Source: an uncultured Fibrobacterota bacterium (GTDB lineage Bacteria > Fibrobacterota > Chitinivibrionia > Chitinivibrionales > FEN-1185). From it: 64,000 nt of DNA. Made by a program: the position numbers and the translations under genes. Under the pieces are notes generated by a model. It saw nothing but the letters and a program-made list of their open reading frames with translations. It did not search any database and had not been told where the DNA came from. Of this stretch, positions 4,000 through 21,352 are shown piece after piece (the first letter of the stretch is position 1; the number at the start of each line of letters is the position of its first letter). The stretch is taken from the NCBI GenBank assembly GCA_963729895.1, contig CAVSQB010000023.1:7594-71593 (forward strand), in the 5' to 3' direction.

Positions 4000-5665
4000 C
4001 TTTGCAAGTCTTTATAAAGGGGGGGGGAAGTTCAGCCTGTCTCAAATCTTGACAATAGGTTTGGGCGTCCCCCTTTTGCTGGACCGCGACCGGGACTACG
4101 TGCATATGTAAAGGAGCAGGGGCGATTACGACTGCTATGTTAAAAAGCAACGAATTTAGCAGAAAAGCTTGATTAAGAGACAGTGCGATCGCCTTCTGTA
4201 TTTCAAGATTCCTAATCTGCCATGTACAGATTGAACAGTTTGCATACTGCTATGAACAGTCAGGTCGTCTAACCCCGCTGCAAGATATTTATCAGAGTAA
4301 AAATGTGTAGCCGCAATCTGCATTAAACGGAATGTTTCCATCCGCAGTCGTAGTCCTACGGTCTACACGCGCATGAGCGCATGTTCAATCTGAGTATTTT
4401 CTTACAGCGCTATTCGATTATGCCTAGAGCATATGGCTTTTGGTTCGCCCAGACGTACCTGATTCGGCTGAGCAATTTCTTTGCTATCCTGATAATGGCA
4501 TTGTTCTTGGTCATTCGCCTCGTCAGGTCACTGAAGCTTTTCGTCAATACAGGGTCTTTGCGGATCGCTATCCAAGCCGCCTCTACCAGCAAATATCGCA
4601 AATAAACGGATTTCCTGCTGGCAATACCCTTTGTCCATTTCTTGTCATCACTACTCTTGACCTCAGGGATAAGGCCGATGATGGCTGCTAGCTTGTCGAA
4701 TTTCGCAAATCTTCTTATGTCGAGAAGCTCTGCGTAAAGAGTGAATGCCGTCGTCAGACCGATTCCGGGTATGGTCCGCAAAAGGCGAATGGTCTCATTA
4801 CGGGAGCTGTATGTACGCAAACCCCTCAAAATATCAAGCTTGCCTTTCCGTGCATCCTCGTATTGCACCAGAAGCAAATCCAGTGTCTGCCGGTTCTGTT
4901 CCTGTTCGAATTTCAAAGCCTGCAACCAGCGAATGAAGTTCCGTGACCAGCGGCGGCCGCTATACTCCGCGGGAATAGAAATTCCGTTGAAGTGGAGAAA
5001 TCCTTTGATATAACTCTTTACCTGACTGCTCCGCTTGGTCTGCTGAAAACGTAGCCGAGAGAGTGAGCGAATCGACTGCTGTTGTGGATTAGGAATAAAG
5101 ATGCACTCCAAAGACCCATTGCCGAGTTCCCGGCTCAGTTTGTTGCTGTCGATCGGATCGCGCTTTGCTATTTTCTCCTTATTTGTCGTTGGAACGTCCG
5201 CAGGGTTTACAATAATATTCCTAACGCCAGCTTCCGTCAATTCGCGGTGAATCCAATAGCCGCAAAATCCAGCCTCATAAACGCTATGGTATTCCCCGCC
5301 AGGATAGTGCTTCTTCATGTAATCGGAAAGCTCTCTCGGGGATGGGTTCATTGAAAACTTTTTCAGAAGTAACTGGTTGGAACGAATAGTTACGCTCCAA
5401 TTAGAATCATGAGCATCTATCCCAATGTCAAATCTTTGCCCATTAAACTCCAGCGCTCTACTATTTTTCCTGATACGCATCGCAGTATCCTTTCGTTTAA
5501 GTTTTTGGAATCTACTAACCCTATTCCAAAAATACGAAGGGATACTGCACCTTTTAATCATAATATCTGCATTGAAGCAGTATGAGCCAACGGGTGTGCC
5601 CCCAGATCGCCGCCCCTTGGGACGGAAGCTGGGGCCAGAGGGAAACGCGAAGCGGTTCCCCCACC
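4000..5665 (-). mobile_element. IS110-family insertion sequence between lptC and lptA (ends approximate)
   Basis: A lower-GC block fills a normally short lptC-lptA spacer. It holds a single DEDD-type transposase gene, with about 170 nt of non-coding sequence 5' and about 400 nt 3' of it. No terminal inverted repeats are obvious, as is usual for this family. Confidence 0.75.
4410..5480 (-). CDS. IS110-family (DEDD/RuvC-like) transposase
   Basis: The sequence from MRIRKNS onward carries IGIDAHDSNW, YEAGFCGYW, IVNPADV and the C-terminal IPGIGLTTAFTLYAEL..RF motif typical of IS110/IS1111 transposases. The ORF-track start at 5819 is probably too far upstream. Confidence 0.9.
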   Translation of the reverse strand: MRIRKNSRALEFNGQRFDIGIDAHDSNWSVTIRSNQLLLKKFSMNPSPRELSDYMKKHYPGGEYHSVYEAGFCGYWIHRELTEAGVRNIIVNPADVPTTNKEKIAKRDPIDSNKLSRELGNGSLECIFIPNPQQQSIRSLSRLRFQQTKRSSQVKSYIKGFLHFNGISIPAEYSGRRWSRNFIRWLQALKFEQEQNRQTLDLLLVQYEDARKGKLDILRGLRTYSSRNETIRLLRTIPGIGLTTAFTLYAELLDIRRFAKFDKLAAIIGLIPEVKSSDDKKWTKGIASRKSVYLRYLLVEAAWIAIRKDPVLTKSFSDLTRRMTKNNAIIRIAKKLLSRIRYVWANQKPYALGIIE

Positions 5666-5679
5666 AGAAAGCTAAGGAA

Positions 5680-6843
5680 ATGAAAAAGATACCTATCATA
5701 ATCTTAAGTCTAATAGCGACCGCGTTTCCAAAATCGCCTGACCTGATATTGAAATCGGCCAACTCCGACGTCAACACCATGTCAAAAGACGGGGAGATGA
5801 TTTCCGAGCTTACCGGCAACGTGGTCTTCTTCTACGACGACGCGGTGATCAAATCCGAATTCGCCAAGTGGTGGAAGAGCCGGGGCACCGTGTCGTTTAC
5901 CGACCATGTCCGGATCGACAGGAAGAACCAGAAGATCACGTCCGACCGCATGGATTATGACAAGGCCAAGAAATGGCTCATTGCCGACGGCCATCTCAAT
6001 TTCTACGACACAAAGGAGCGCGTAAAACTCATCGGGGATCACGGGACCTATTACCTCGACAAGAAGTTTCTTGTCGTTGAGGGCCATCCGCAATTCATAT
6101 TTTACGATACTGCCGCGCACGACACGCTCGACATCCGGGGAAAGAAAATGACCTACGACGATTCCATCAAGAAGGCGTCGGTGTACGAGAACGTCACGGT
6201 GGCAAAAGGAAGCCTGTTCACGCATTCCGAGGCCGCCTATTACTTCCCGGACTCGGGACGGGCGCAGTTGCGCAAGGTGCCGAGAATCGCCTACCAGACC
6301 GATTCGCTGAGCGGCGATTCCGTGGACCTGACGTTCACGAAAAAGCATTTGCAGCACGTCAAAGTAAACGGCGGTTCGCACGGGCAGTACAAGGATTTCG
6401 GCGCGTCGGACACCACACTTACACACCTGTTCGGCGACAGTATTTCCATGTTTCTCACCGATTCGGGCAAAATAGATTCCATGTGGGCGTTTGGTAATGT
6501 CAAGAGCAAGTACTATCCGCTAAAAAACCCGCTTTCGACCAACGAGGCGTACGGGAAGCTCATGACCGTCTCGTTCAACGGCCGCGGCGAAATTTCCCGC
6601 GTCAAGGTGTGGGGCAACGCGCGGAGCATCTACAACGTGGACGAGAAAGACGGCAGGGGCCGCAACGAGGCAAGCGGCGACAGCATCACGGTCTCGTTTG
6701 CAAAAGGCAAAGCAACGCACGTGAAACTGTCCGGCAGCGTGCGAGGATTCTACGCTCCGCTGCCCGCGGCGGCCAAGCCGCAGCCCGACAGCGGCATCCA
6801 GGAAAAACCCAAAGTCGCCCCAAAAAAGGAAGTCCCGCAGTGA
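5680..6843 (+). CDS. lptA: LptA/OstA-like periplasmic LPS transport protein (long form, ~387 aa)
   Basis: ATG at 5680 followed by a signal peptide ([16 protein letters not shown]). OstA-type beta-jellyroll-like repeats run through the protein. It lies immediately upstream of, and overlaps, lptB. Confidence 0.6.
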
Positions 6844-7631
6844 GCGAAGACACTCAGGAGACCGCCACCGTTGCCGGGCCGCAGCCGACGGCCCCCCCGG
6901 CATCGCGCAGGGAAATCCGCACCGAGGAACTTGTCAAGATCTACAGCAAGCGCCGCGTGGTGGACGGCGTGACCATCACCGTGCACCAGGGAGAGATCGT
7001 GGGACTTTTGGGTCCCAACGGCGCCGGCAAGACCACCACCTTCTACATGATCGTGGGCATGATCCGCGCCAACAAGGGAAACATCTACCTTGACAATCAC
7101 GAGATTTCAAGAAAGCCCATGTTCAAGCGCGCCCGGATGGGCATAGGATATCTTTCGCAGGAGCCGTCCATCTTCCGCAAACTTTCGGTTGGCGACAACA
7201 TCATGGCCATTCTGGAATCCCAACACATGGGCGCCCGTGTCCGCAAGGAGCGGATGCACCAATTGCTCGAAGAGCTTCACGTGGCGCACCTGGAGAAAAG
7301 CCTCGGCTACCAGCTTTCCGGAGGCGAACGCCGCCGTGTGGAAATCGCCCGCGCCCTGGCCAACAAACCCGATTTCATTTTGCTCGACGAGCCCTTTGCC
7401 GGCATCGACCCTATTGCCGTGGAGGACATCCAGAGCATCGTGCACGATTTGCGAAGCAAGAACTACGGCATCCTAATTACCGATCACAATGTTCGGGAAA
7501 CCTTGCGCATCACCGACCGCGCCTACATCATCTCCGAAGGAAAAATCCTCATTTCCGGCACCTCCAAGGAACTCGCGGAGAATCCGGAGGCCCGGAGGAT
7601 TTATCTGGGGCAGAAGTTCAAGCTGGATTAA
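6840..7631 (+). CDS. lptB: LPS export ABC transporter ATP-binding protein
   Basis: A GTG at 6840 overlaps the lptA stop. Walker A (GPNGAGKTT), signature ([15 protein letters not shown]) and Walker B (ILLDEPFAG) motifs are present. Classical lptB-rpoN synteny. Confidence 0.9.
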
Positions 7632-7653: not shown

Positions 7654-7711
7654 GTGGGGGAAGTATCCCCCTCGCTCCACTGCGTTCCGCTGCCCCCTCC
7701 TGGGTGCACCC
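7654..7711 (+). repeat. intergenic structured repeat, copy A, 5' segment (cut by IS5)
   Basis: GTGGGGGAAGTATCCCCCTCGCTCC...CCCCCTCCTGGGTGCACC is near-identical to 19549-19630. It begins about 20 nt after the lptB stop. Confidence 0.7.
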
Positions 7712-9031
7712 CTAGCAGGGTGTTGAAAAAGTCTCCCTTTTGTAAACATTTATCCTTATATTATAGGGGAACCCGAACCAAGGAGTATTGATGAGAGGTT
7801 CCCAGCCAGCCCAAGGCGGTATGTTCAGCTTCGTTTCTCCGGATTCCCGAGTGCCGGCAACACACCCGCTTCGTCGTGTCAAACAGTTTACGGACATAGC
7901 GCTGCGCCGCCTTTCTCGTGACTTTGAGGCGATGTACAGCCGGATGGGACGCCCTTCGATACCGCCGGAATGGCTTTTGAAAGCACAGATATTGATGGCT
8001 TTGTTTTCGATACGGTCGGACCGGTTGTTTTGCGAGATGCTGGACTATAACATTCTGTTCCGATGGTTTCTTGACATGGATCTGGATGCGGCATCGTTTG
8101 ATCATAGTGTGTTTTCGAAGAACCGAGATCGACTTATGGAACAGGAGATTGCGCACCGGCTGATGCAGGAAATCGTGCGTCTTGCTCGTTCCGAAGAGTT
8201 GTTGTCCGATGAGCATTTCACGGTTGACGGCACGTTGATTGAAGCCTGGGCATCGATGAAGAGCTTCAAGCGAAAAGACGCGGAATCGGCGAACAAGACT
8301 GACGATGATCGGAGTAATCCGTCGGTTGATTTCCACCATGAGAAGCGAAGCAATGAGACACATCAGAGTTCGACCGATCCAGAGGCGCTGTTGGCTCGGA
8401 AGAACAAGAGAACGGGAGCGCAGCTGGCGTATTCCGGTCACGTGCTGATGGAAAACCGAAATGGGTTGTGTGTTGATATCGCCATTGCGCCAGCGACGGG
8501 GACAGCGGAACGGGATATGGCGCTTGAGCTGATAAAGCATGAACGCAGGCGCGGAAAACGCCGGATGAAGACGGTGGGTGCAGACAAAGGGTATCATGCA
8601 ACCGAATTTATCAAGAGCCTGCGACGCCTGCACGTGAAGCCTCACATTGCCGAGAAGGCCAACACTTCGCTTAAAGGGTTGGATGGAAGAACGACTCGGC
8701 ATAAGGGATACAGCGTAAGTCAAAGGAAACGAAAACGGGTTGAAGAGATATTTGGGTGGATCAAGAGCGTCGGTGGCCTGCGGAAAACTCGGGTAAGAGG
8801 AATACGAATCAACCAGACTGTTGCCTACGTGGTTGCCGCAGCGTACAACTTGATACGCATGGTTAAGTTGATGCCGCAAACGGTGGGGGCAGCATGAGAA
8901 TGGCCTGGGAATCCGGGGAAATGCCTCGGAACGAGGCAGGTAAAACCTCTCTGACATATGTAAAGTTGAAGTTAGGTTCATAAAAAATCAACAAGAGCGC
9001 TTCTGTTAGGACTATTTCAACAACCTGCTAG
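7712..9031 (+). mobile_element. IS5-family insertion sequence, copy 1 (1320 bp including flanking CTAG)
   Basis: Identical in length to 16603-17922, with 2 substitutions seen (7775 and 8724). Terminal inverted repeats are CAGGGTGTTGAAAAAG and CAGGTTGTTGAAATAG (reverse complement). CTAG is present at both junctions, consistent with IS5-type YTAR target duplication. Confidence 0.9.
7788..8897 (+). CDS. IS5-family DDE transposase (InsH-like N-terminal domain)
   Basis: 369 aa. The N-terminal LFCEMLDYNILFRWFLDMDLD is a DUF772/InsH-type domain, followed by the DDE core with DKGYHATEF. The protein is identical to that encoded at 16679-17788. Confidence 0.9.
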   Translation: MMRGSQPAQGGMFSFVSPDSRVPATHPLRRVKQFTDIALRRLSRDFEAMYSRMGRPSIPPEWLLKAQILMALFSIRSDRLFCEMLDYNILFRWFLDMDLDAASFDHSVFSKNRDRLMEQEIAHRLMQEIVRLARSEELLSDEHFTVDGTLIEAWASMKSFKRKDAESANKTDDDRSNPSVDFHHEKRSNETHQSSTDPEALLARKNKRTGAQLAYSGHVLMENRNGLCVDIAIAPATGTAERDMALELIKHERRRGKRRMKTVGADKGYHATEFIKSLRRLHVKPHIAEKANTSLKGLDGRTTRHKGYSVSQRKRKRVEEIFGWIKSVGGLRKTRVRGIRINQTVAYVVAAAYNLIRMVKLMPQTVGAA

Positions 9032-9334
9032 AGAGAAAAGTAGCAAGAGTCAACCTTCCGTTGGGGGGCACCCGCCGAGAGCTGGTGGAGATTGACGGAG
9101 AGGAGTTGCGTTGTTTTTGATGTTTGCGTTAGGCACGACTGGAGCGGTGCGCAGGAGCGCAGTGTCGGTCGACCCCGTCGCGCGGTTGTCGAGTGCCGTT
9201 CCCCTTGATACTTACCTGCGGTACACTCGGGGAGCGGTGTACCGAGACAGCGCGGCATGGGGGCGAACCGGCACCGAGGCCGAACGGCCAAGCCCGGAGG
9301 AAGGGCCGACCCGAGGGAAGCGAGGGAAACGCCC
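9032..9334 (+). repeat. intergenic structured repeat, copy A, 3' segment (includes 3' module 9126-9334)
   Basis: Aligns with 19631-19877 and 18000-18302. The 3' module is closed by GCGTT...AACGC. Its internal long helix carries a ~70-nt expansion relative to copies B and C. Confidence 0.7.
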
Positions 9335-9439
9335 ATCTTAAGAGTTTGATATTTGGGTGCGCCCGGCAACAGCAATTTCCACTCTTTTCATAATCATTTT
9401 TTCTTGTTTCCCCGGCAATACTATATACTAAATTTCATA

Positions 9440-9455
9440 TGGCACGAAATTTGAT
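9440..9455 (+). promoter_or_regulatory. near-consensus sigma-54 -24/-12 element upstream of rpoN (TGGCAC-N5-TTGAT)
   Basis: TGGCACGAAATTTGAT lies 28 nt upstream of the rpoN ATG. The -24 box is perfect, but the -12 box has GA instead of GC. An AAGGA ribosome-binding site follows. Confidence 0.3.
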
Positions 9456-16558: not shown

Positions 16559-16602
16559 GTGGGGGAAGTGTACCCCGTCGGGCACTTCCAAGGGTCGTCC
16601 CC
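16559..16602 (+). repeat. intergenic structured repeat, copy B, 5' segment (cut by IS5)
   Basis: GTGGGGGAAGTGTACCCC... is related to the 5' ends of copies A and C. It begins 15 nt after the thrC stop. Confidence 0.6.
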
Positions 16603-17922
16603 CTAGCAGGGTGTTGAAAAAGTCTCCCTTTTGTAAACATTTATCCTTATATTATAGGGGAACCCCAACCAAGGAGTATTGATGAGAGGTTCCCAGCCAG
16701 CCCAAGGCGGTATGTTCAGCTTCGTTTCTCCGGATTCCCGAGTGCCGGCAACACACCCGCTTCGTCGTGTCAAACAGTTTACGGACATAGCGCTGCGCCG
16801 CCTTTCTCGTGACTTTGAGGCGATGTACAGCCGGATGGGACGCCCTTCGATACCGCCGGAATGGCTTTTGAAAGCACAGATATTGATGGCTTTGTTTTCG
16901 ATACGGTCGGACCGGTTGTTTTGCGAGATGCTGGACTATAACATTCTGTTCCGATGGTTTCTTGACATGGATCTGGATGCGGCATCGTTTGATCATAGTG
17001 TGTTTTCGAAGAACCGAGATCGACTTATGGAACAGGAGATTGCGCACCGGCTGATGCAGGAAATCGTGCGTCTTGCTCGTTCCGAAGAGTTGTTGTCCGA
17101 TGAGCATTTCACGGTTGACGGCACGTTGATTGAAGCCTGGGCATCGATGAAGAGCTTCAAGCGAAAAGACGCGGAATCGGCGAACAAGACTGACGATGAT
17201 CGGAGTAATCCGTCGGTTGATTTCCACCATGAGAAGCGAAGCAATGAGACACATCAGAGTTCGACCGATCCAGAGGCGCTGTTGGCTCGGAAGAACAAGA
17301 GAACGGGAGCGCAGCTGGCGTATTCCGGTCACGTGCTGATGGAAAACCGAAATGGGTTGTGTGTTGATATCGCCATTGCGCCAGCGACGGGGACAGCGGA
17401 ACGGGATATGGCGCTTGAGCTGATAAAGCATGAACGCAGGCGCGGAAAACGCCGGATGAAGACGGTGGGTGCAGACAAAGGGTATCATGCAACCGAATTT
17501 ATCAAGAGCCTGCGACGCCTGCACGTGAAGCCTCACATTGCCGAGAAGGCCAACACTTCGCTTAAAGGGTTGGATGGAAGAACGACTCGGCATAAGGGAT
17601 ACAGCGTAAGTCAACGGAAACGAAAACGGGTTGAAGAGATATTTGGGTGGATCAAGAGCGTCGGTGGCCTGCGGAAAACTCGGGTAAGAGGAATACGAAT
17701 CAACCAGACTGTTGCCTACGTGGTTGCCGCAGCGTACAACTTGATACGCATGGTTAAGTTGATGCCGCAAACGGTGGGGGCAGCATGAGAATGGCCTGGG
17801 AATCCGGGGAAATGCCTCGGAACGAGGCAGGTAAAACCTCTCTGACATATGTAAAGTTGAAGTTAGGTTCATAAAAAATCAACAAGAGCGCTTCTGTTAG
17901 GACTATTTCAACAACCTGCTAG
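16603..17922 (+). mobile_element. IS5-family insertion sequence, copy 2
   Basis: Same 1320-bp unit as 7712-9031, in the same orientation, with the same inverted repeats and flanking CTAG. Confidence 0.9.
16679..17788 (+). CDS. IS5-family DDE transposase
   Basis: The protein is identical to that of 7788-8897. One DNA difference inside the CDS is synonymous (AGG versus CGG Arg). Confidence 0.9.
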   Translation: MMRGSQPAQGGMFSFVSPDSRVPATHPLRRVKQFTDIALRRLSRDFEAMYSRMGRPSIPPEWLLKAQILMALFSIRSDRLFCEMLDYNILFRWFLDMDLDAASFDHSVFSKNRDRLMEQEIAHRLMQEIVRLARSEELLSDEHFTVDGTLIEAWASMKSFKRKDAESANKTDDDRSNPSVDFHHEKRSNETHQSSTDPEALLARKNKRTGAQLAYSGHVLMENRNGLCVDIAIAPATGTAERDMALELIKHERRRGKRRMKTVGADKGYHATEFIKSLRRLHVKPHIAEKANTSLKGLDGRTTRHKGYSVSQRKRKRVEEIFGWIKSVGGLRKTRVRGIRINQTVAYVVAAAYNLIRMVKLMPQTVGAA

Positions 17923-18302
17923 GGTGCGGCTTCCGGCGCCTCCTTGATGAATACAAATACCACAAATTCCGGAGGCGCCGGCGATCCGCACCCATACCCC
18001 CTCGTGGGTAGCCCCCAAGAGAGTTGATTTGCAAGAAAGAAGTTTCGGCTGCGGGGCACCGAGGAAGAGAGTTGAGAAGTTCAGCGCCGGGTCTTGATTG
18101 ACTTCTTGAAGATATTAGTTGGCGACGAAAAATGCTAATTGACAAAATATATTTCCTTTGCCGCCGCGTTAGGTGGACCGGAGGGTGAGCTGGTGCGAAT
18201 TGCCGCCTGATCCCTCGCCGAAGGCGGTAGGGACAGGCGGCAACGAGGCCGACAGGCCGAGCCCGGAGGGAGACCGACCCGGCCGGAGGCCGGGGAACGC
18301 CC
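17923..18302 (+). repeat. intergenic structured repeat, copy B, 3' segment (3' module 18166-18302)
   Basis: The 137-nt 3' module aligns position-for-position with 19741-19877. It shares the GCGTTAGG start, GGCAACGAGGCC-N4-GGCCGAGCCCG core and GGAACGCCC end. Confidence 0.7.
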
Positions 18303-18339
18303 AACTGTCTTTCAAAATCAAGAAACAGGATTGGTAATC

Positions 18340-19530
18340 ATGAAATATGCGATTCTGGTCGGCGACGGGATGGCGGACTTCCCTCTTCCCGAGCTTGACA
18401 ACCGCACACCGCTCGGCTACGCGGCCACGCCGAACATGGATACGGTCGCCCGGGAGGGCCGAGTCGGGCTTGTCAAGACCATACCCGACGGGCTTCCTCC
18501 GGGCAGCGACGTGGCGAACATGTCGCTCATGGGATACGACCCGGCGGCCTACTATTCCGGCCGCGCGCCCATCGAGGCGGCGAGCATGGGGATTGAACTG
18601 AAAAAGACCGACACGGCCTTCAGGTGTAATCTGGTGACGATCGAAAAAGGCGTCATGGCCGACTATTCGGCAGGCCACATCGAAACGTCCGACGCGCACG
18701 AGATCATCGCCGCATTACAGGGTGAACTCGGAACCCGGGACCTGCGGTTTTACCCGGGCGTGAGCTACCGCCATATCACCGTGATCGCGGAATTCCCCTC
18801 GGGAAAGCTCGACTGCACTCCGCCGCACGATATTTCCGGCAGGGCGGTCGCCGGCAGCCTCCCCTCGGGAAAGGGCCAGGACATTGTCCGGCAGCTCATG
18901 GAACGGGCGCGGCCGGTGCTCGATTCCTGTGCTGTCAACAAGCGCCGCACAGCGCAGGGCAAGAAACCCGCAACCGACATCTGGCTCTGGGGCCAGGGCA
19001 AAGCGATTGTGCTTCCCACCATGAAAGAGCGGTTTTCGATTACCGGTTCCGTGGTCTCCGCCGTGGACCTGGTACGCGGTATCGGCGTGCTTGCAGGGCT
19101 CAACGTGCGGATCGTTGAAGGCGCAACGGGCTACCTGGGGACCAACTATGCAGGCAAGATTTCCGCGGCGCACGATGCGCTGTGCAACGAGGACTTTGTG
19201 TTTGTCCACGTGGAAGCGCCCGACGAAACATCGCATGAAGGCTCGCTCCAAAAGAAGATCCAGGCAATCGAAGAATTCGACAAGAATATCGTAGGAGAAA
19301 TGGTCGCAATGCGCGGTGAATTCACGGACCTGCGCATCATGGTCCTGCCCGATCACGCCACTCCCGTGCCGCTCAAGACCCATCATGCCGCGCCTGTGCC
19401 CTTTGCCGTCTGCGGGGCCGGGGTCGATGCCGACGGCAGTCTTTCCTATTGCGAAAAATCGGCGCAGGGGAAAAAGATGTATACGGGCGTGACGCTGTTT
19501 GAGACGTTTATTAAGGGCAAATTCGAATAA
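18340..19530 (+). CDS. ApgM-like metalloenzyme (cofactor-independent phosphoglycerate mutase family); likely the 'proposed homoserine kinase' type
   Basis: MKYAILVGDGMADFP... is a typical ApgM-family N-terminus and metal site. It is the next gene after hom-thrC, and no canonical thrB is present in the block. The ATG at 18340 is preferred over the TTG at 18331. Confidence 0.7.
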   Translation: MKYAILVGDGMADFPLPELDNRTPLGYAATPNMDTVAREGRVGLVKTIPDGLPPGSDVANMSLMGYDPAAYYSGRAPIEAASMGIELKKTDTAFRCNLVTIEKGVMADYSAGHIETSDAHEIIAALQGELGTRDLRFYPGVSYRHITVIAEFPSGKLDCTPPHDISGRAVAGSLPSGKGQDIVRQLMERARPVLDSCAVNKRRTAQGKKPATDIWLWGQGKAIVLPTMKERFSITGSVVSAVDLVRGIGVLAGLNVRIVEGATGYLGTNYAGKISAAHDALCNEDFVFVHVEAPDETSHEGSLQKKIQAIEEFDKNIVGEMVAMRGEFTDLRIMVLPDHATPVPLKTHHAAPVPFAVCGAGVDADGSLSYCEKSAQGKKMYTGVTLFETFIKGKFE

Positions 19531-19548
19531 TAATAATACAATATCCTG

Positions 19549-19877
19549 GCGGGGGAAGTATCCCCCTCGCTCCGGCCGCCTCGGCCTTCGGCCTGCGGTG
19601 TCCTCCGCTACCCCCTCCTGGGTGCACCCCAAGTGGAAGTAGTTGCAAGAATCAAGCACCTGCGCGGGGGCACCCACGGAGAGAAAGTGACTGCAGAAAG
19701 CCGTTAAATGCACGAGTCAGAGTTTCTTAAATTGAGTTTTGCGTTAGGCAAGACTGGAGGGTGCGCTAGAGCGCATTGCCGGTCGACCCCGCCGAAGGCA
19801 TAGGGGCGATCCGGCAACGAGGCCAAAGGGCCGAGCCCGAAAGGATGGCCGCCATCGGCTTCAGCCGGTGGAACGCC
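19549..19877 (+). repeat. intergenic structured repeat, copy C (uninterrupted reference copy, ~330 nt)
   Basis: Fills the whole spacer between the ApgM-like gene and the sugar transferase gene. It contains the 5' hairpin module, a central GGGTGCACCCC...GGGGGCACCC helix, and the 137-nt 3' module (19741-19877). Confidence 0.75.
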
Positions 19878-19906
19878 CGTTTTACCTCACAATCAAGAAT
19901 CTAGCT

Positions 19907-21352
19907 ATGGTTGTACGATTCATCGAAAAAGCCCTTACCTTCCTCATCGACATCATTGCGTTCAACGTCGCGTTTGGAACCGCGTTCTGGATCCGCTACA
20001 AGAGCAATTTCTTTCCCGAAAGCTTCAACTCCGAGATCGAATTCTCGTCGTATATCATTTTGTCAATCATCGTCGCGGGCTGCTGGGTGCTCATGTTCTT
20101 TTTTACCGGCCTGTACCGCGATTGGTACAAGGAATCAAGGCTCGACGAATTCTTTGTGGTCGTGCGCACCATTCTCATCGGCATCTTCCTGCTGTTCCTT
20201 ATAACGAGCGCCTCGCAGATCATCGATTTCGCCACAAGCGGCAACATTGAACTCGTCTTGACAAGAACAAAATTCGCCGTGCTTGTCACCTATGCCGCGT
20301 GCCTCGTGTTCTTTACCACTGCCGACCGGTTTCTCATGCACAGCCTGCTGTCGTTTCTCTTTGTGCGCGGCATCGGCGTGAGCAAGGTACTTATTATCGG
20401 CGCCCAGGAACCGGGGATGCAGCTGCTCGACGAGCTCAAGCATTATCCCCAGCTCGGGTACCAGGTAAAGGGCTTCATCGACGACAACGGCAAGCTCACG
20501 GGCACGATATGCAACGGCCTGCCCGTCCTGGGCACGTACTCCGACCTGCCTGCCGTCGTCAAGAAGGAGCGAATCACCGGACTCATTGTGTCGCATGTGT
20601 CGGGATCCGCCAACGAGATTCTCAAAATCGTCAATTACTGCGGAGACCTGCGGCTCACCATCTATATGGTGCCGTCACTCATGGACGTCATATCCGGCCA
20701 CCTCAAGACGCATCAGATATTCGGCGTGCCGCTCATGATCCTGCTGCAAGACCACCTGCCGGCCTGGGAGGCGCAAATCAAGCGCATTATCGACATCGTG
20801 GTGTCCACGGTGGTGCTCGTTCTGGGCTCCCCCGTGTGGTTTGCCATCGCAGCGATCATCAGGCTCACCTCGCCGGGCAAGGCGATTTACAACCAGGAAC
20901 GCGTGGGCCAGAACGGCAAGCCGTTTATCATGCATAAATTCCGCTCCATGTACAACGACGCGGAAAAGCACTCGGGCCCCACGTGGGCCACAAAAAAAGA
21001 CCCTCGCATTACGCCCATCGGCAGGTTTCTGCGCACGACGCGGCTCGATGAGATTCCGCAGTTCATCAACGTGCTGAAAGGAGAAATGAGCCTTGTGGGC
21101 CCGAGGCCGGAACGCGCGTTCTTCATCCAGCAGCTCAAGCAGGAGATCCCCTGGTATGCGCGCCGCATCAAGATGAAGCCCGGCATCACGGGGTGGGCGC
21201 AGGTGAAGCACAAATACGATGCGTCAATTGAGGATGTCAAGCAGAAGGTGATGTACGATCTGTACTATTTCGAAAACATGTCCCTCATGCTCGACCTCAA
21301 GATCATGCTGCACACGATTCTTGTGGTGTTTACGGGCAAAGGGGCTCACTAA
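19907..21352 (+). CDS. undecaprenyl-phosphate sugar phosphotransferase (WbaP/EPS priming glycosyltransferase)
   Basis: Four to five N-terminal TM segments, a central Rossmann-like region, and a C-terminal bacterial sugar transferase domain (HKFRSM...DEIPQFINVLKGEMSLVGPRP). The ATG at 19907 is preferred, because the GTG at 19868 lies inside the repeat. Confidence 0.85.
   Translation: MVVRFIEKALTFLIDIIAFNVAFGTAFWIRYKSNFFPESFNSEIEFSSYIILSIIVAGCWVLMFFFTGLYRDWYKESRLDEFFVVVRTILIGIFLLFLITSASQIIDFATSGNIELVLTRTKFAVLVTYAACLVFFTTADRFLMHSLLSFLFVRGIGVSKVLIIGAQEPGMQLLDELKHYPQLGYQVKGFIDDNGKLTGTICNGLPVLGTYSDLPAVVKKERITGLIVSHVSGSANEILKIVNYCGDLRLTIYMVPSLMDVISGHLKTHQIFGVPLMILLQDHLPAWEAQIKRIIDIVVSTVVLVLGSPVWFAIAAIIRLTSPGKAIYNQERVGQNGKPFIMHKFRSMYNDAEKHSGPTWATKKDPRITPIGRFLRTTRLDEIPQFINVLKGEMSLVGPRPERAFFIQQLKQEIPWYARRIKMKPGITGWAQVKHKYDASIEDVKQKVMYDLYYFENMSLMLDLKIMLHTILVVFTGKGAH

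Follow-up and report, generated by a model that had tools for sequence, protein, structure and literature searches.

We found that a 64,000-nucleotide stretch of the genome of an uncultured Fibrobacterota bacterium (contig CAVSQB010000023.1; hereafter the window) carries three copies (A, B and C) of a mosaic intergenic repeat, the 3′ module of which belongs to a family with 113 sampled copies and a common covarying fold of nine helices. The repeat family is previously undescribed and is confined to a small group of uncultured wetland Chitinivibrionales, an order belonging to the FCB group. It is a dispersed mosaic repeat and not a fixed 3′ untranslated region (UTR) or leader element of the three window genes; the 3′ module is the real unit, of which a 5′ module, a spacer of short tandem repeats and a promoter-like box are separable companions. 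The reading that we favor, at somewhat less than even confidence, is that the 3′ modules are independently transcribed, structured small-RNA units embedded in this clade-restricted repeat. As judged from sequence, these units would be transcribed from a predicted start site, would be active as RNA rather than as single-stranded DNA, and would carry out some molecular function.

The fold of the 3′ module was transferred manually from copy B to 26 copies and embodied in a covariance model of the ~135-nt module (R1); hand mapping with covariance-model refinement was used instead of RNAalifold on plain MAFFT alignments, which gave poor structures. A three-way junction joins the closing helix P1 (GCGUU/AACGC) to the hypervariable hairpin Pd and to a rod, along which P2, a tandem G·A, P3, a symmetric G-N-A/G-N-A loop and P4 follow in order. 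P4 opens into a four-way junction of the short hairpin Pa, the long helix Pb, which has a bulged A, and Pc (GGCC-N4-GGCC), and the CGA and GAG joints are invariant. Across the 113 copies, standard pairs fill 88.5% of the pair cells as against 35–45% when the partners are slid by 1–3 columns, and the covariation score is 0.262 as against 0.04–0.055 for slid partners. Both sides change in 33 of the 44 pairs (520 cells), compared to about 22 pairs in shuffles, and none of 500 shuffles matches the observed value on any of five measures. P1 itself covaries between GCGUU/AACGC, GCGCC/GGCGC and GCGCG/CGCGC. The alignment was fitted by R1 and is biased toward the structure; the result is nevertheless robust, given the controls with slid partners and the large number of alternative helix sequences. 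Helix Pb alone occurs in at least 31 types at 85% identity, which combine freely with the Pa types. The junction bases outside the search pattern are 91–100% conserved and the hairpin loops 42–75%. Among the noncanonical cells, G·U is more frequent than A·C (42 against 14, P1 and P4 excluded) and G·A than C·U (104 against 18), a bias that points to one functional strand, either RNA or single-stranded DNA; the G·A part of this evidence is moderate, since many G·A cells are inherited within subfamilies. Conserved loops combined with covarying stems, which the initial annotation had proposed as the mark of a functional RNA or structure-dependent DNA element rather than a decaying repeat, thus find strong support on 113 copies.

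The family was delineated by a core-pattern scan of one genome per species, which returned 72 loci, 66 of them in three Fibrobacterota/Chitinivibrionales bins (CAVWBU01, PLWQ01 ‘fen_1185’ and DATFYJ01). The remaining six, from GC-rich and unrelated Bordetella, Burkholderiales and Gaiellaceae bins, are chance matches, in which R1 finds nothing. In the 66 short loci, R1 recovers 110 further copies, bringing the family to 113 with those of the window, and many of these loci have 3–5 copies per 8 kb. The window represents a fourth carrier genome, syntenic with fen_1185 at 75–81% nucleotide identity. The closest pair of paralogs is 96% identical and most are at 85–93%; the absence of near-identical paralogs indicates an old family and not a recent burst. 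Neither viral contigs, searched with two patterns, nor plasmids, searched by blastn with the whole element, yielded a match, and a phage or plasmid origin is rejected. About 110 copies lie in other genomes without the IS5-type insertion sequence (IS) of the window; thus, the copies do not sit only next to IS5, as the initial annotation had considered, and dependence on that element is rejected. Two Logan contigs, L001 (ERR11523660) and L002 (ERR11593882), are identical to window positions 18223–19624 and 18274–19576, respectively, and both ends of each lie inside the modules flanking apgM, indicating that the family breaks short-read assemblies.

No known class accounts for the module. Searches of the 64-kb window with the 4227 models of Rfam 15 gave no match at the gathering threshold, and at E≤10 the region 19500–19950 returned only noise (best mir-564, 22 bits against a threshold of 80), in agreement with the initial annotation, which had recognized no known RNA class. 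On 16 related loci Rfam found two tRNAs only, away from the modules, and ARAGORN and the Rfam tRNA model detected nothing at the modules. A MITE (miniature inverted-repeat transposable element), raised earlier as the alternative to look for, is rejected: the search of 19525–19915 gave internal arms only in place of terminal inverted repeats, with the element ending in GTGGGGGAAGT... and ...GGAACGCCC-ARNTYTT, no direct repeat bounds copies A, B or C, and near-identical copies are absent (best 96%). The REP/BIME/REPIN class of repetitive extragenic palindromes (REP) is set aside because the unit is a 135-nt multi-junction fold and not a 20–40-nt palindrome, GTAG heads occurring only as insertions in Pd. 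An integron attC site is excluded by the reversed order of its motifs (GTTAGGY 5′, GGAAC 3′), the multi-branched fold, the mixed orientations and the housekeeping neighbors. The combination of 5′ module, (GTTGAnnnn)n repeats, box and 3′ module in varying arrangements within a narrow taxon is BOX-like, a resemblance in kind with no homology to BOX.

In the window, where the genes flanking the spacers were identified by Pfam, the parts of the three copies are as follows.

7654–9346, plus strand: copy A, the modular element in the lptB-rpoN spacer, split by an IS5-type insertion
7654–7715, plus strand: left part of the copy A 5′ module, starting 22 nt past the lptB stop codon
9028–9125, plus strand: remainder of the copy A 5′ module and spacer
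9126–9346, plus strand: copy A 3′ module and tail, the tip of helix Pb carrying a ~75-nt insertion (R1 85.7 bits)
16559–18314, plus strand: copy B, in the thrC-apgM spacer, split by the same IS5-type insertion
16559–16606, plus strand: left part of the copy B 5′ module, starting 14 nt past the thrC stop codon and ending at the CTAG target site
17919–18117, plus strand: right part of the copy B 5′ module (core 18000–18070) and GTTGA-type short repeats
18118–18165, plus strand: conserved upstream box (M5) of copy B, TTGGCG..N..TTGACAAAATATATTTCC..GCCGCC, ending at P1 (a box at fixed spacing in 57 of 113 copies)
18166–18314, plus strand: copy B 3′ module and tail (R1 136.6 bits; z −4.07)
19548–19890, plus strand: copy C, in the spacer between apgM and the sugar transferase gene, intact
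19548–19690, plus strand: copy C 5′ module (50 related cores in other genomes)
19691–19740, plus strand: copy C inter-module spacer, without the TTGGCGCAAGAA...TTGAC box and with a final TTGAGTTTT directly 5′ of P1
19741–19878, plus strand: copy C 3′ module, the core ~135-nt fold of nine helices (R1 120.9 bits; minimum free energy −70.2 kcal/mol, z −3.95)
19879–19890, plus strand: pyrimidine-rich, G-poor tail of copy C after P1 (position-specific composition in 103 copies)

A 27-nt core, GGCAMCGAGGCCNNNNGGCCRAGCCCG, is present at exactly three places of the window (9270, 18239 and 19813), each time on the plus strand, against a chance expectation of 0.01, and the three 3′ modules match R1 at 85.7–136.6 bits (E 7e-16 to 2e-26), confirming that the spacers after lptB, thrC and the ApgM-like gene hold the same modular element and that copy C is intact. 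Beyond these three copies, the R1 scan of the 64 kb gave no other credible match; a weak one at 1310–1439 on the minus strand lies within an 800-aa open reading frame (ORF) and is attributed to chance. In copies B and C, the 137-nt 3′ modules fold with z of about −4 relative to dinucleotide shuffles. The particulars of these modules, as first annotated from the letters, are largely borne out: the opening GCGTT and closing AACGC, the long helix of copy B (TTGCCGCCTG-A-TCCCT/AGGGACAGGCGGCAA) and that of copy C (TTGCCGGTCG-A-CCCC/GGGGCGATCCGGCAA, with one extra bulged T), the apical GCCGAAGGC tip, the terminal hairpins CCCGGCC/GGCCGGG and CCATCGGC/GCCGGTGG, and the joints CGAGGCC and GAGCCCG are all present. 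Other statements needed adjustment. The modules of B and C are equal in length, and their alignment is gapless only approximately, owing to compensating 1-nt indels; the elements start 14–22 nt and not 15–20 nt after the upstream stop codons; copy A ends ~148 nt before rpoN and so not just before the next gene; and the constant coding-strand placement holds for the three window copies and fails across the family, where orientation is random. Of the ~330-nt element described as structured, the 3′ half fits that description, and the 5′ half is far weaker, with one clearly covarying pair. The 5′ module of copy C consists of a GGGGG-AAGTAT-CCCCC hairpin (19551–19566), a variable hairpin and the core CCTCCTGGGTGCACCCC...GGGGGCACCCACGGAG (19608–19686), and the ortholog of copy C in fen_1185 has TTGATTTTT where the spacer of copy C has TTGAGTTTT.

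Comparisons of orthologous sites point to conservation of individual copies in place, together with turnover of the family. In fen_1185, each of the three window copies has a counterpart at the same site. Between copy C and its ortholog the identity is 93%, compared to 79% for the surrounding 3.2 kb, and the two differ at one of 88 paired columns (U·G to C:G) and at seven of 49 unpaired ones. Between the sister-bin loci L013 and L054, the module is identical save for five loop changes and helix Pb, which is wholly swapped for another common allele, and the adjacent spacer is about 77% identical. To define the family limits, we compared 80 apgM loci from metagenomes, among which R1 modules occur only where ApgM is at least 75% identical. 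Some copies are truncated or internally deleted. Individual copies are therefore structure-conserved while present, and the family gains, loses and exchanges parts. In L080 and L081, thrC, apgM and the sugar-transferase gene form a tight operon without the repeat (in L081 at 2501 and 3685), and the 330–450-nt elements, plus the IS copies in the window, have pried this operon apart. Taken together, the strand-specific multi-junction fold, the invariant purine junctions, the conservation above neighboring coding DNA and the lack of recent bursts favor a folded single strand with a function, in the simplest case an RNA.

The placement of the copies relative to genes, which were called around them by a codon-usage model, is random in orientation with respect to both neighbors: the upstream gene has the same orientation in 56 cases and the opposite one in 43, and the downstream gene is co-oriented in 51 and convergent in 54 of 105. 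All four neighbor arrangements are common. In 24 cases the copy lies antisense between co-directional genes, where a sense RNA would need its own promoter. Orientations are mixed even within single 8-kb loci, such as L021 (+,+,−,+,−) and L015 (−,+,+,−,+), on account of which an element dependent on the replication strand (IS200/IS605-type single-stranded DNA) is rejected. From the 3′ end to the next gene, start or stop, the median distance is 36–52 nt. The neighbors are ordinary and diverse (e.g., FtsX, Era, an ABC-F protein, a radical-SAM enzyme, MatE, GH30, GH2 and PolA), and a functional association with them is rejected. Orientation independence likewise argues against a leader or UTR role, and a 3′-UTR or 5′-leader element is rejected on that ground.

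The best candidate for a transcription signal is an upstream box, TTGGCGCAAGAA-N8-TTGACnGAATAGATTyC-N4-GCCGC, which ends exactly at P1 and stands at this fixed distance in 57 of the 113 copies, suggesting a promoter. Its TAGATTTC resembles the ‘−7’ promoter box of the FCB group and also TAnnTTT(C/G)-like motifs that lie 7–40 nt upstream of tRNA genes of these genomes, with one more upstream of rpoN. An attempt to derive a promoter consensus for the clade from non-element spacers was uninformative. A sigma-54 promoter in the box is rejected on inspection because its spacing does not fit, and an alternative pairing of the box with the tail (as an outer helix or antiterminator) because true pairs, at −8.63 kcal/mol, equal mismatched ones at −8.50 ± 0.19. 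The other copies have TTGAYTTTT in place of the box or, in a ‘type II’ subfamily with GCGCC, GAGTTTCTT. In L003, a type II module (6771–6906) lies 60 nt upstream of a co-oriented tRNA-Ala gene (6966–7041) with no obvious promoter between the two, and the module and the tRNA may be co-transcribed; the orthologous tRNA gene in L056 has no module.

The companion parts occur in loose combination. The 5′ module, furthest upstream, begins with a GGGGG-loop-CCCCC hairpin followed by a core CCTCCTGGGTRSCCSCC...GGSGGCACCC, 50 instances of which were found in other genomes; 39 of 58 core matches are followed by a 3′ module 126–350 nt downstream, and either module also occurs alone. Pairing in the 5′ module is plausible, with one pair that clearly covaries. 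In most 5′ modules TTGKT precedes GGGGGAAG and is possibly part of the first hairpin. As to whether the 5′ module is the 3′ module in inverted form, R1 gives only a weak match to its reverse strand (4.1 bits, E 0.28 in 361 nt), and the second hairpin of the 5′ module has a 25-nt direct similarity of 72% to the Pd region, which hints that the two may share an origin. Usually upstream of the box are (GTTGAnnnn)n short tandem repeats, with n from 0 to ~20; they form arrays of a 9-nt purine-rich (A/G)GTTGA(A/G)NN unit in many inter-module spacers (e.g., L063:2700–2990), are replaced in some copies by ATTGYGGAT-type repeats, and merge with their final unit into the TTGAC of the box. Such arrays could bind a protein or arise by slippage. 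Downstream of P1, 103 copies define a G-poor, pyrimidine-rich tail with the consensus A-R-N-T-Y-T-T-Y-T-T.

The 3′ module also hosts inserts. Helix Pd of L009, L010, L021, L024, L030, L051, L072, L074 and others contains nested, long and perfect GTAG-headed palindromes (e.g., TGTAGAGGCGCAC-N4-GTGCGCCTCTACA) with covarying stems, which look like a separate REP-type family that inserts into the Pd loop. The rod hosts a 27-nt insert that recurs, CGACCCTTGGAAGCACCCGAAGGGGTG (hairpin CACCC-GAAG-GGGTG), and that is found at two different places of the module; it lies between the 3′ strands of P3 and P2 in L022, L029, L050, L053, L007:3144–3332, L052:4061–4159 and L079, and is also present in L006, L019 and L065. 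A second small hairpin insert of the rod, GATTCAACCCGCCCAAnnGGAAGGGCGGGTTA, occurs in L040, L044 and L061.

We propose that the 3′ module is the gene for a compact small RNA of ~135–150 nt, encoded on the strand analyzed here and belonging to a large family of paralogs. In roughly half of the copies, the upstream box would start transcription 3–5 nt before P1; the RNA would fold into P1–P4 plus Pa, Pb, Pc and Pd and end in or near the pyrimidine-rich tail. Its invariant purine-rich junctions (A6, the two G-N-A loops, CGA, GAG and the tandem G·A) are predicted to build a tertiary core, presumably the binding surface for a protein or ligand, with helices Pa, Pb and Pd tolerating any sequence that pairs and accepting insertions. 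These units, within a mosaic repeat of 5′ module, (GTTGAnnnn)n, box and RNA, would have spread through one Chitinivibrionales clade and probably evolved by birth and death, short-patch exchange of whole helices and internal deletion, the mosaic repeat serving as a likely landing pad for IS elements. A bolder version, which we consider rather unlikely, is that more than 100 independently transcribed RNAs of one nine-helix fold, with the hypervariable Pb as specificity element, constitute a new class, organized like tRNA genes, of functional RNAs in many copies, acting for example as scaffolds or adaptors for a protein, or as a new ribozyme, and not just as a selfish repeat.

Several observations weigh against independently transcribed small RNAs. 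Apart from tRNAs, we know of no small RNA in bacteria that is encoded by more than 100 gene copies. A simple scan at the module found neither a sigma-70-type promoter nor a canonical intrinsic terminator. The upstream box is absent from about half of the copies, and it is not enriched where an own promoter would be required, being present in 19 of the 43 copies whose upstream gene is divergent and in 30 of the 56 whose upstream gene is co-directional. Helices are exchanged as cassettes, and much of the covariation therefore counts shared alleles and not independent events. There are also signs that individual copies are dispensable: the family is missing from relatives with ApgM at 76% identity or lower, of which L080 and L081 (75–76%) have empty sites, with thrC-apgM spacers of about 80 nt and 1 nt and apgM-transferase spacers of 16–25 nt; L075 (ApgM 95%) has another subtype at the B site and only ~110 nt left at the C site; and the carriers vary in which sites are filled, the B site being empty in L077 and holding only a 5′ module in L078, and L079 being without 5′ modules.

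One rival reading is a selfish, non-autonomous element of the REPIN, PATE or MITE kind, in which the fold is read on single-stranded DNA by an enzyme acting in trans, such as an HUH/Y1 transposase (RAYT or IS200/IS605), and structure is kept since only well-folded copies propagate. We consider this doubtful, yet the most probable of the rivals. The high copy number in a single clade, the empty sites in close relatives, the tight packing at gene ends (median 36–52 nt on the 3′ side), the mosaic composition with many truncated or internally deleted copies, the T-rich sequence ending in TTGKT just 5′ of the first hairpin and the REP-like GTAG-headed palindromes nested in Pd all speak for it, and it was on the same reasoning that Croucher et al. 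classed the BOX, RUP and SPRITE repeats of pneumococci as parasitic (PMC3049150). However, terminal inverted repeats and target duplications are lacking, no two copies are more than 96% identical, and the mixed orientation in single 8-kb loci is unlike the lagging-strand bias of IS200/IS605. No transposase adjoins any sampled copy: upstream of the 113 copies we found no tnpA or tnpB, and the close upstream genes examined are ordinary, the search covering the loci only and not whole genomes. Moreover, individual copies are conserved above neighboring coding DNA, and a nine-helix fold with invariant purine junctions far exceeds what known single-strand transposases read. A cis element like BOX or BIME, with no transcript of its own and acting within neighboring mRNAs by stabilizing, processing, terminating or insulating them, is improbable in our estimate, although it would account for the modular architecture (5′ module, n short repeats and 3′ module), the start of the window 5′ modules 14–22 nt past stop codons, the pyrimidine-rich tail after P1 and the flanking genes of all kinds. 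It would also suit the several 3′ modules that end 25–45 nt before start codons, leaving no room for another promoter (as at apgM, in both species, with which the module would be co-transcribed), and BOX elements are known to be co-transcribed and strongly structured (PMC3049150). What tells against it is a strand-specific fold in random orientation, with about a quarter of the copies having a sense strand that neither neighbor's mRNA contains, together with the lack of a detected canonical terminator and of copy-specific pairing between box and tail, whose duplex energies equal those of mismatched controls; stabilization or termination would, moreover, need only a simple hairpin.

Two further explanations are given less weight. 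A riboswitch or other cis-regulatory 5′ leader of a large regulon, with a junction that binds a ligand or protein and controls the downstream gene, would have the compact multi-junction fold and invariant unpaired purines seen here, and would fit the copies located 25–45 nt before start codons; T-boxes and c-di-GMP-I riboswitches do reach dozens of copies per genome. We regard it as very unlikely, since the downstream genes have no common function, empty sites or module deletions occur in close relatives, and no Rfam riboswitch matches; the orientation counts (of 105 downstream genes, 51 are co-oriented and 54 convergent) tell heavily against it, and neither an alternative-pairing expression platform nor a terminator-like site was found. 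Even less probable is a self-cleaving ribozyme of a new class, dispersed over intergenic regions. Small size, multi-helix junctions with invariant junction nucleotides, freely varying helices and multiple copies are what one would expect of it, and hammerhead and twister ribozymes are multi-copy in some genomes; but the models of known ribozymes give no match even at E≤10, the sequence offers no indication of a cleavage site, and the modules are not associated with phage or mobile genes. Thus, independently transcribed small-RNA units remain the interpretation that we prefer, with the tentativeness stated at the outset, and there is a reasonable chance that the family is a genuinely new multi-copy functional RNA.

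Three insertion sequences in the window have landed in copies of the family, and the associated features are these.

7716–9027, minus strand: IS5-family IS inside copy A (ORF 7761–8981), second copy of the same IS
16607–17918, minus strand: IS5-family IS inside copy B (transposase ORF 16652–17872), 100% identical to 7716–9027
4020–4075, minus strand: remnant of a fourth, reversed copy with only the P1 3′ strand, tail and downstream hairpin (reverse complement GGGGGACGCCCAAACCTATTGTCAAGATTTGAGACAGGCTGAACTTCCCCC); the same tail type occurs in fen_1185 copies
5594–5665, minus strand: reversed 5′ module start on the far side of an IS110-type insertion, matching the reverse complement of an L024-type 5′ module start

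The IS5-type element is 1312 bp long, with ~18-bp terminal inverted repeats and a CTAG duplication, and occurs in two identical copies in the window; its 406-aa ORF is ~29% identical to annotated IS5-family transposases and without a match in Pfam and NCBIfam. Both insertions follow ...GGGT-N3-4-CCCCTAG within 5′ modules, with CTAG duplicated at 7712–7715/9028–9031 and 16603–16606/17919–17922. As the three 5′ modules together make up ~1% of the window, the presence of both IS copies in them suggests a target preference of the IS for the 5′ module. Between the two remnants lies a gene for an IS110-family RNA-guided (bridge-RNA) transposase (4076–5593; ORF 4410–5480 on the minus strand; NF033542 at 173 bits, PF01548 and PF02371), and its position indicates that a third IS landed in a family copy within 20 kb. 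REP-type repeats are known targets of IS110 elements (PMC11208160, PMC12288879). Separately, TGGCACGAAATTTGAT at 9440–9455, ~28 nt upstream of the rpoN start, resembles a sigma-54 −24/−12 promoter (TGGCACG-N4-TTGC), is conserved in fen_1185 and may reflect autoregulation of rpoN.

If the family is a functional RNA, it would be, tRNAs aside, one of the largest families of paralogous structured RNAs in a bacterium, in a phylum and class (Fibrobacterota, Chitinivibrionia) with almost no described non-coding RNAs, and would be a candidate Rfam family and a subject for biochemistry directed at a protein partner, a ligand or self-cleavage. If it is selfish, it would show that a dispersed bacterial repeat can keep a complex, strand-specific fold of tertiary type and would point to unrecognized mobilization machinery that reads structure. 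Either way, the family explains assembly breaks in the carrier bins and marks hot spots for IS5- and IS110-type insertion.

Among known systems, PATEs, which are non-autonomous IS200/IS605 derivatives, and the omega-RNA scaffolds of TnpB have a 100–150-nt structured RNA module at the 3′ end and a hairpin near the 5′ end. The family resembles them in its 3′-end module and its 5′ hairpin, and a short conserved T-rich motif directly 5′ of the element (TTGKT), which may instead belong to the first hairpin, recalls TTGAT/TTAC-type target sites, but it has no tnpA or tnpB beside the 113 copies and mixed orientations within loci; further, its semi-conserved tail is not guide-like, and the Rfam IS605-orfB and HEARO models do not match. 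The REP/BIME repeats and REPINs of proteobacteria, mobilized by RAYT, are likewise high-copy extragenic sequences near gene ends, with mosaic motifs, compensatory stem changes and a role as IS targets, including for IS110, and the GTAG-headed palindromes in Pd of some copies are shared with REP. A REP, however, is a single 20–40-nt imperfect palindrome, whereas the present unit has 135 nt and multi-way junctions, and, unlike in REPINs, there is no inverted doublet of identical arms and no RAYT was seen in the loci, to which the search was confined. With tRNA gene families the analogy is organizational only: both comprise tens to hundreds of intergenic paralogs with one fold, invariant junctions and differing helices, oriented independently of their neighbors, with own promoters (here putative) and with turnover between relatives, but the fold here is not a cloverleaf, and the family is clade-restricted and dispensable at individual loci. 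The pneumococcal BOX (boxA-(boxB)n-boxC), RUP and SPRITE are dispersed intergenic repeats (Croucher et al. 2011, PMC3049150) that share with our family ~100 or more copies, a modular make-up with variable internal units, extensive structure, restriction to one species group, slow turnover, co-transcription with neighbors (here putative) and the lack of an own transposase. In contrast, there is no sequence similarity to BOX, which comes from a different phylum with a different G+C content and is essentially a long hairpin, whereas the core here has nine helices, two junctions, invariant unpaired purines and strong covariation; unlike in BOX, about half of the copies have a fixed-distance upstream box that suggests an own promoter. 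The family is thus closest in kind to BOX and REP/BIME, yet a member of neither, and what distinguishes it is the complexity and conservation of its fold and the fact that its paralogs share junctions and not helix sequences, as tRNA genes do. It is a new, clade-restricted family of the structured dispersed intergenic repeat kind.

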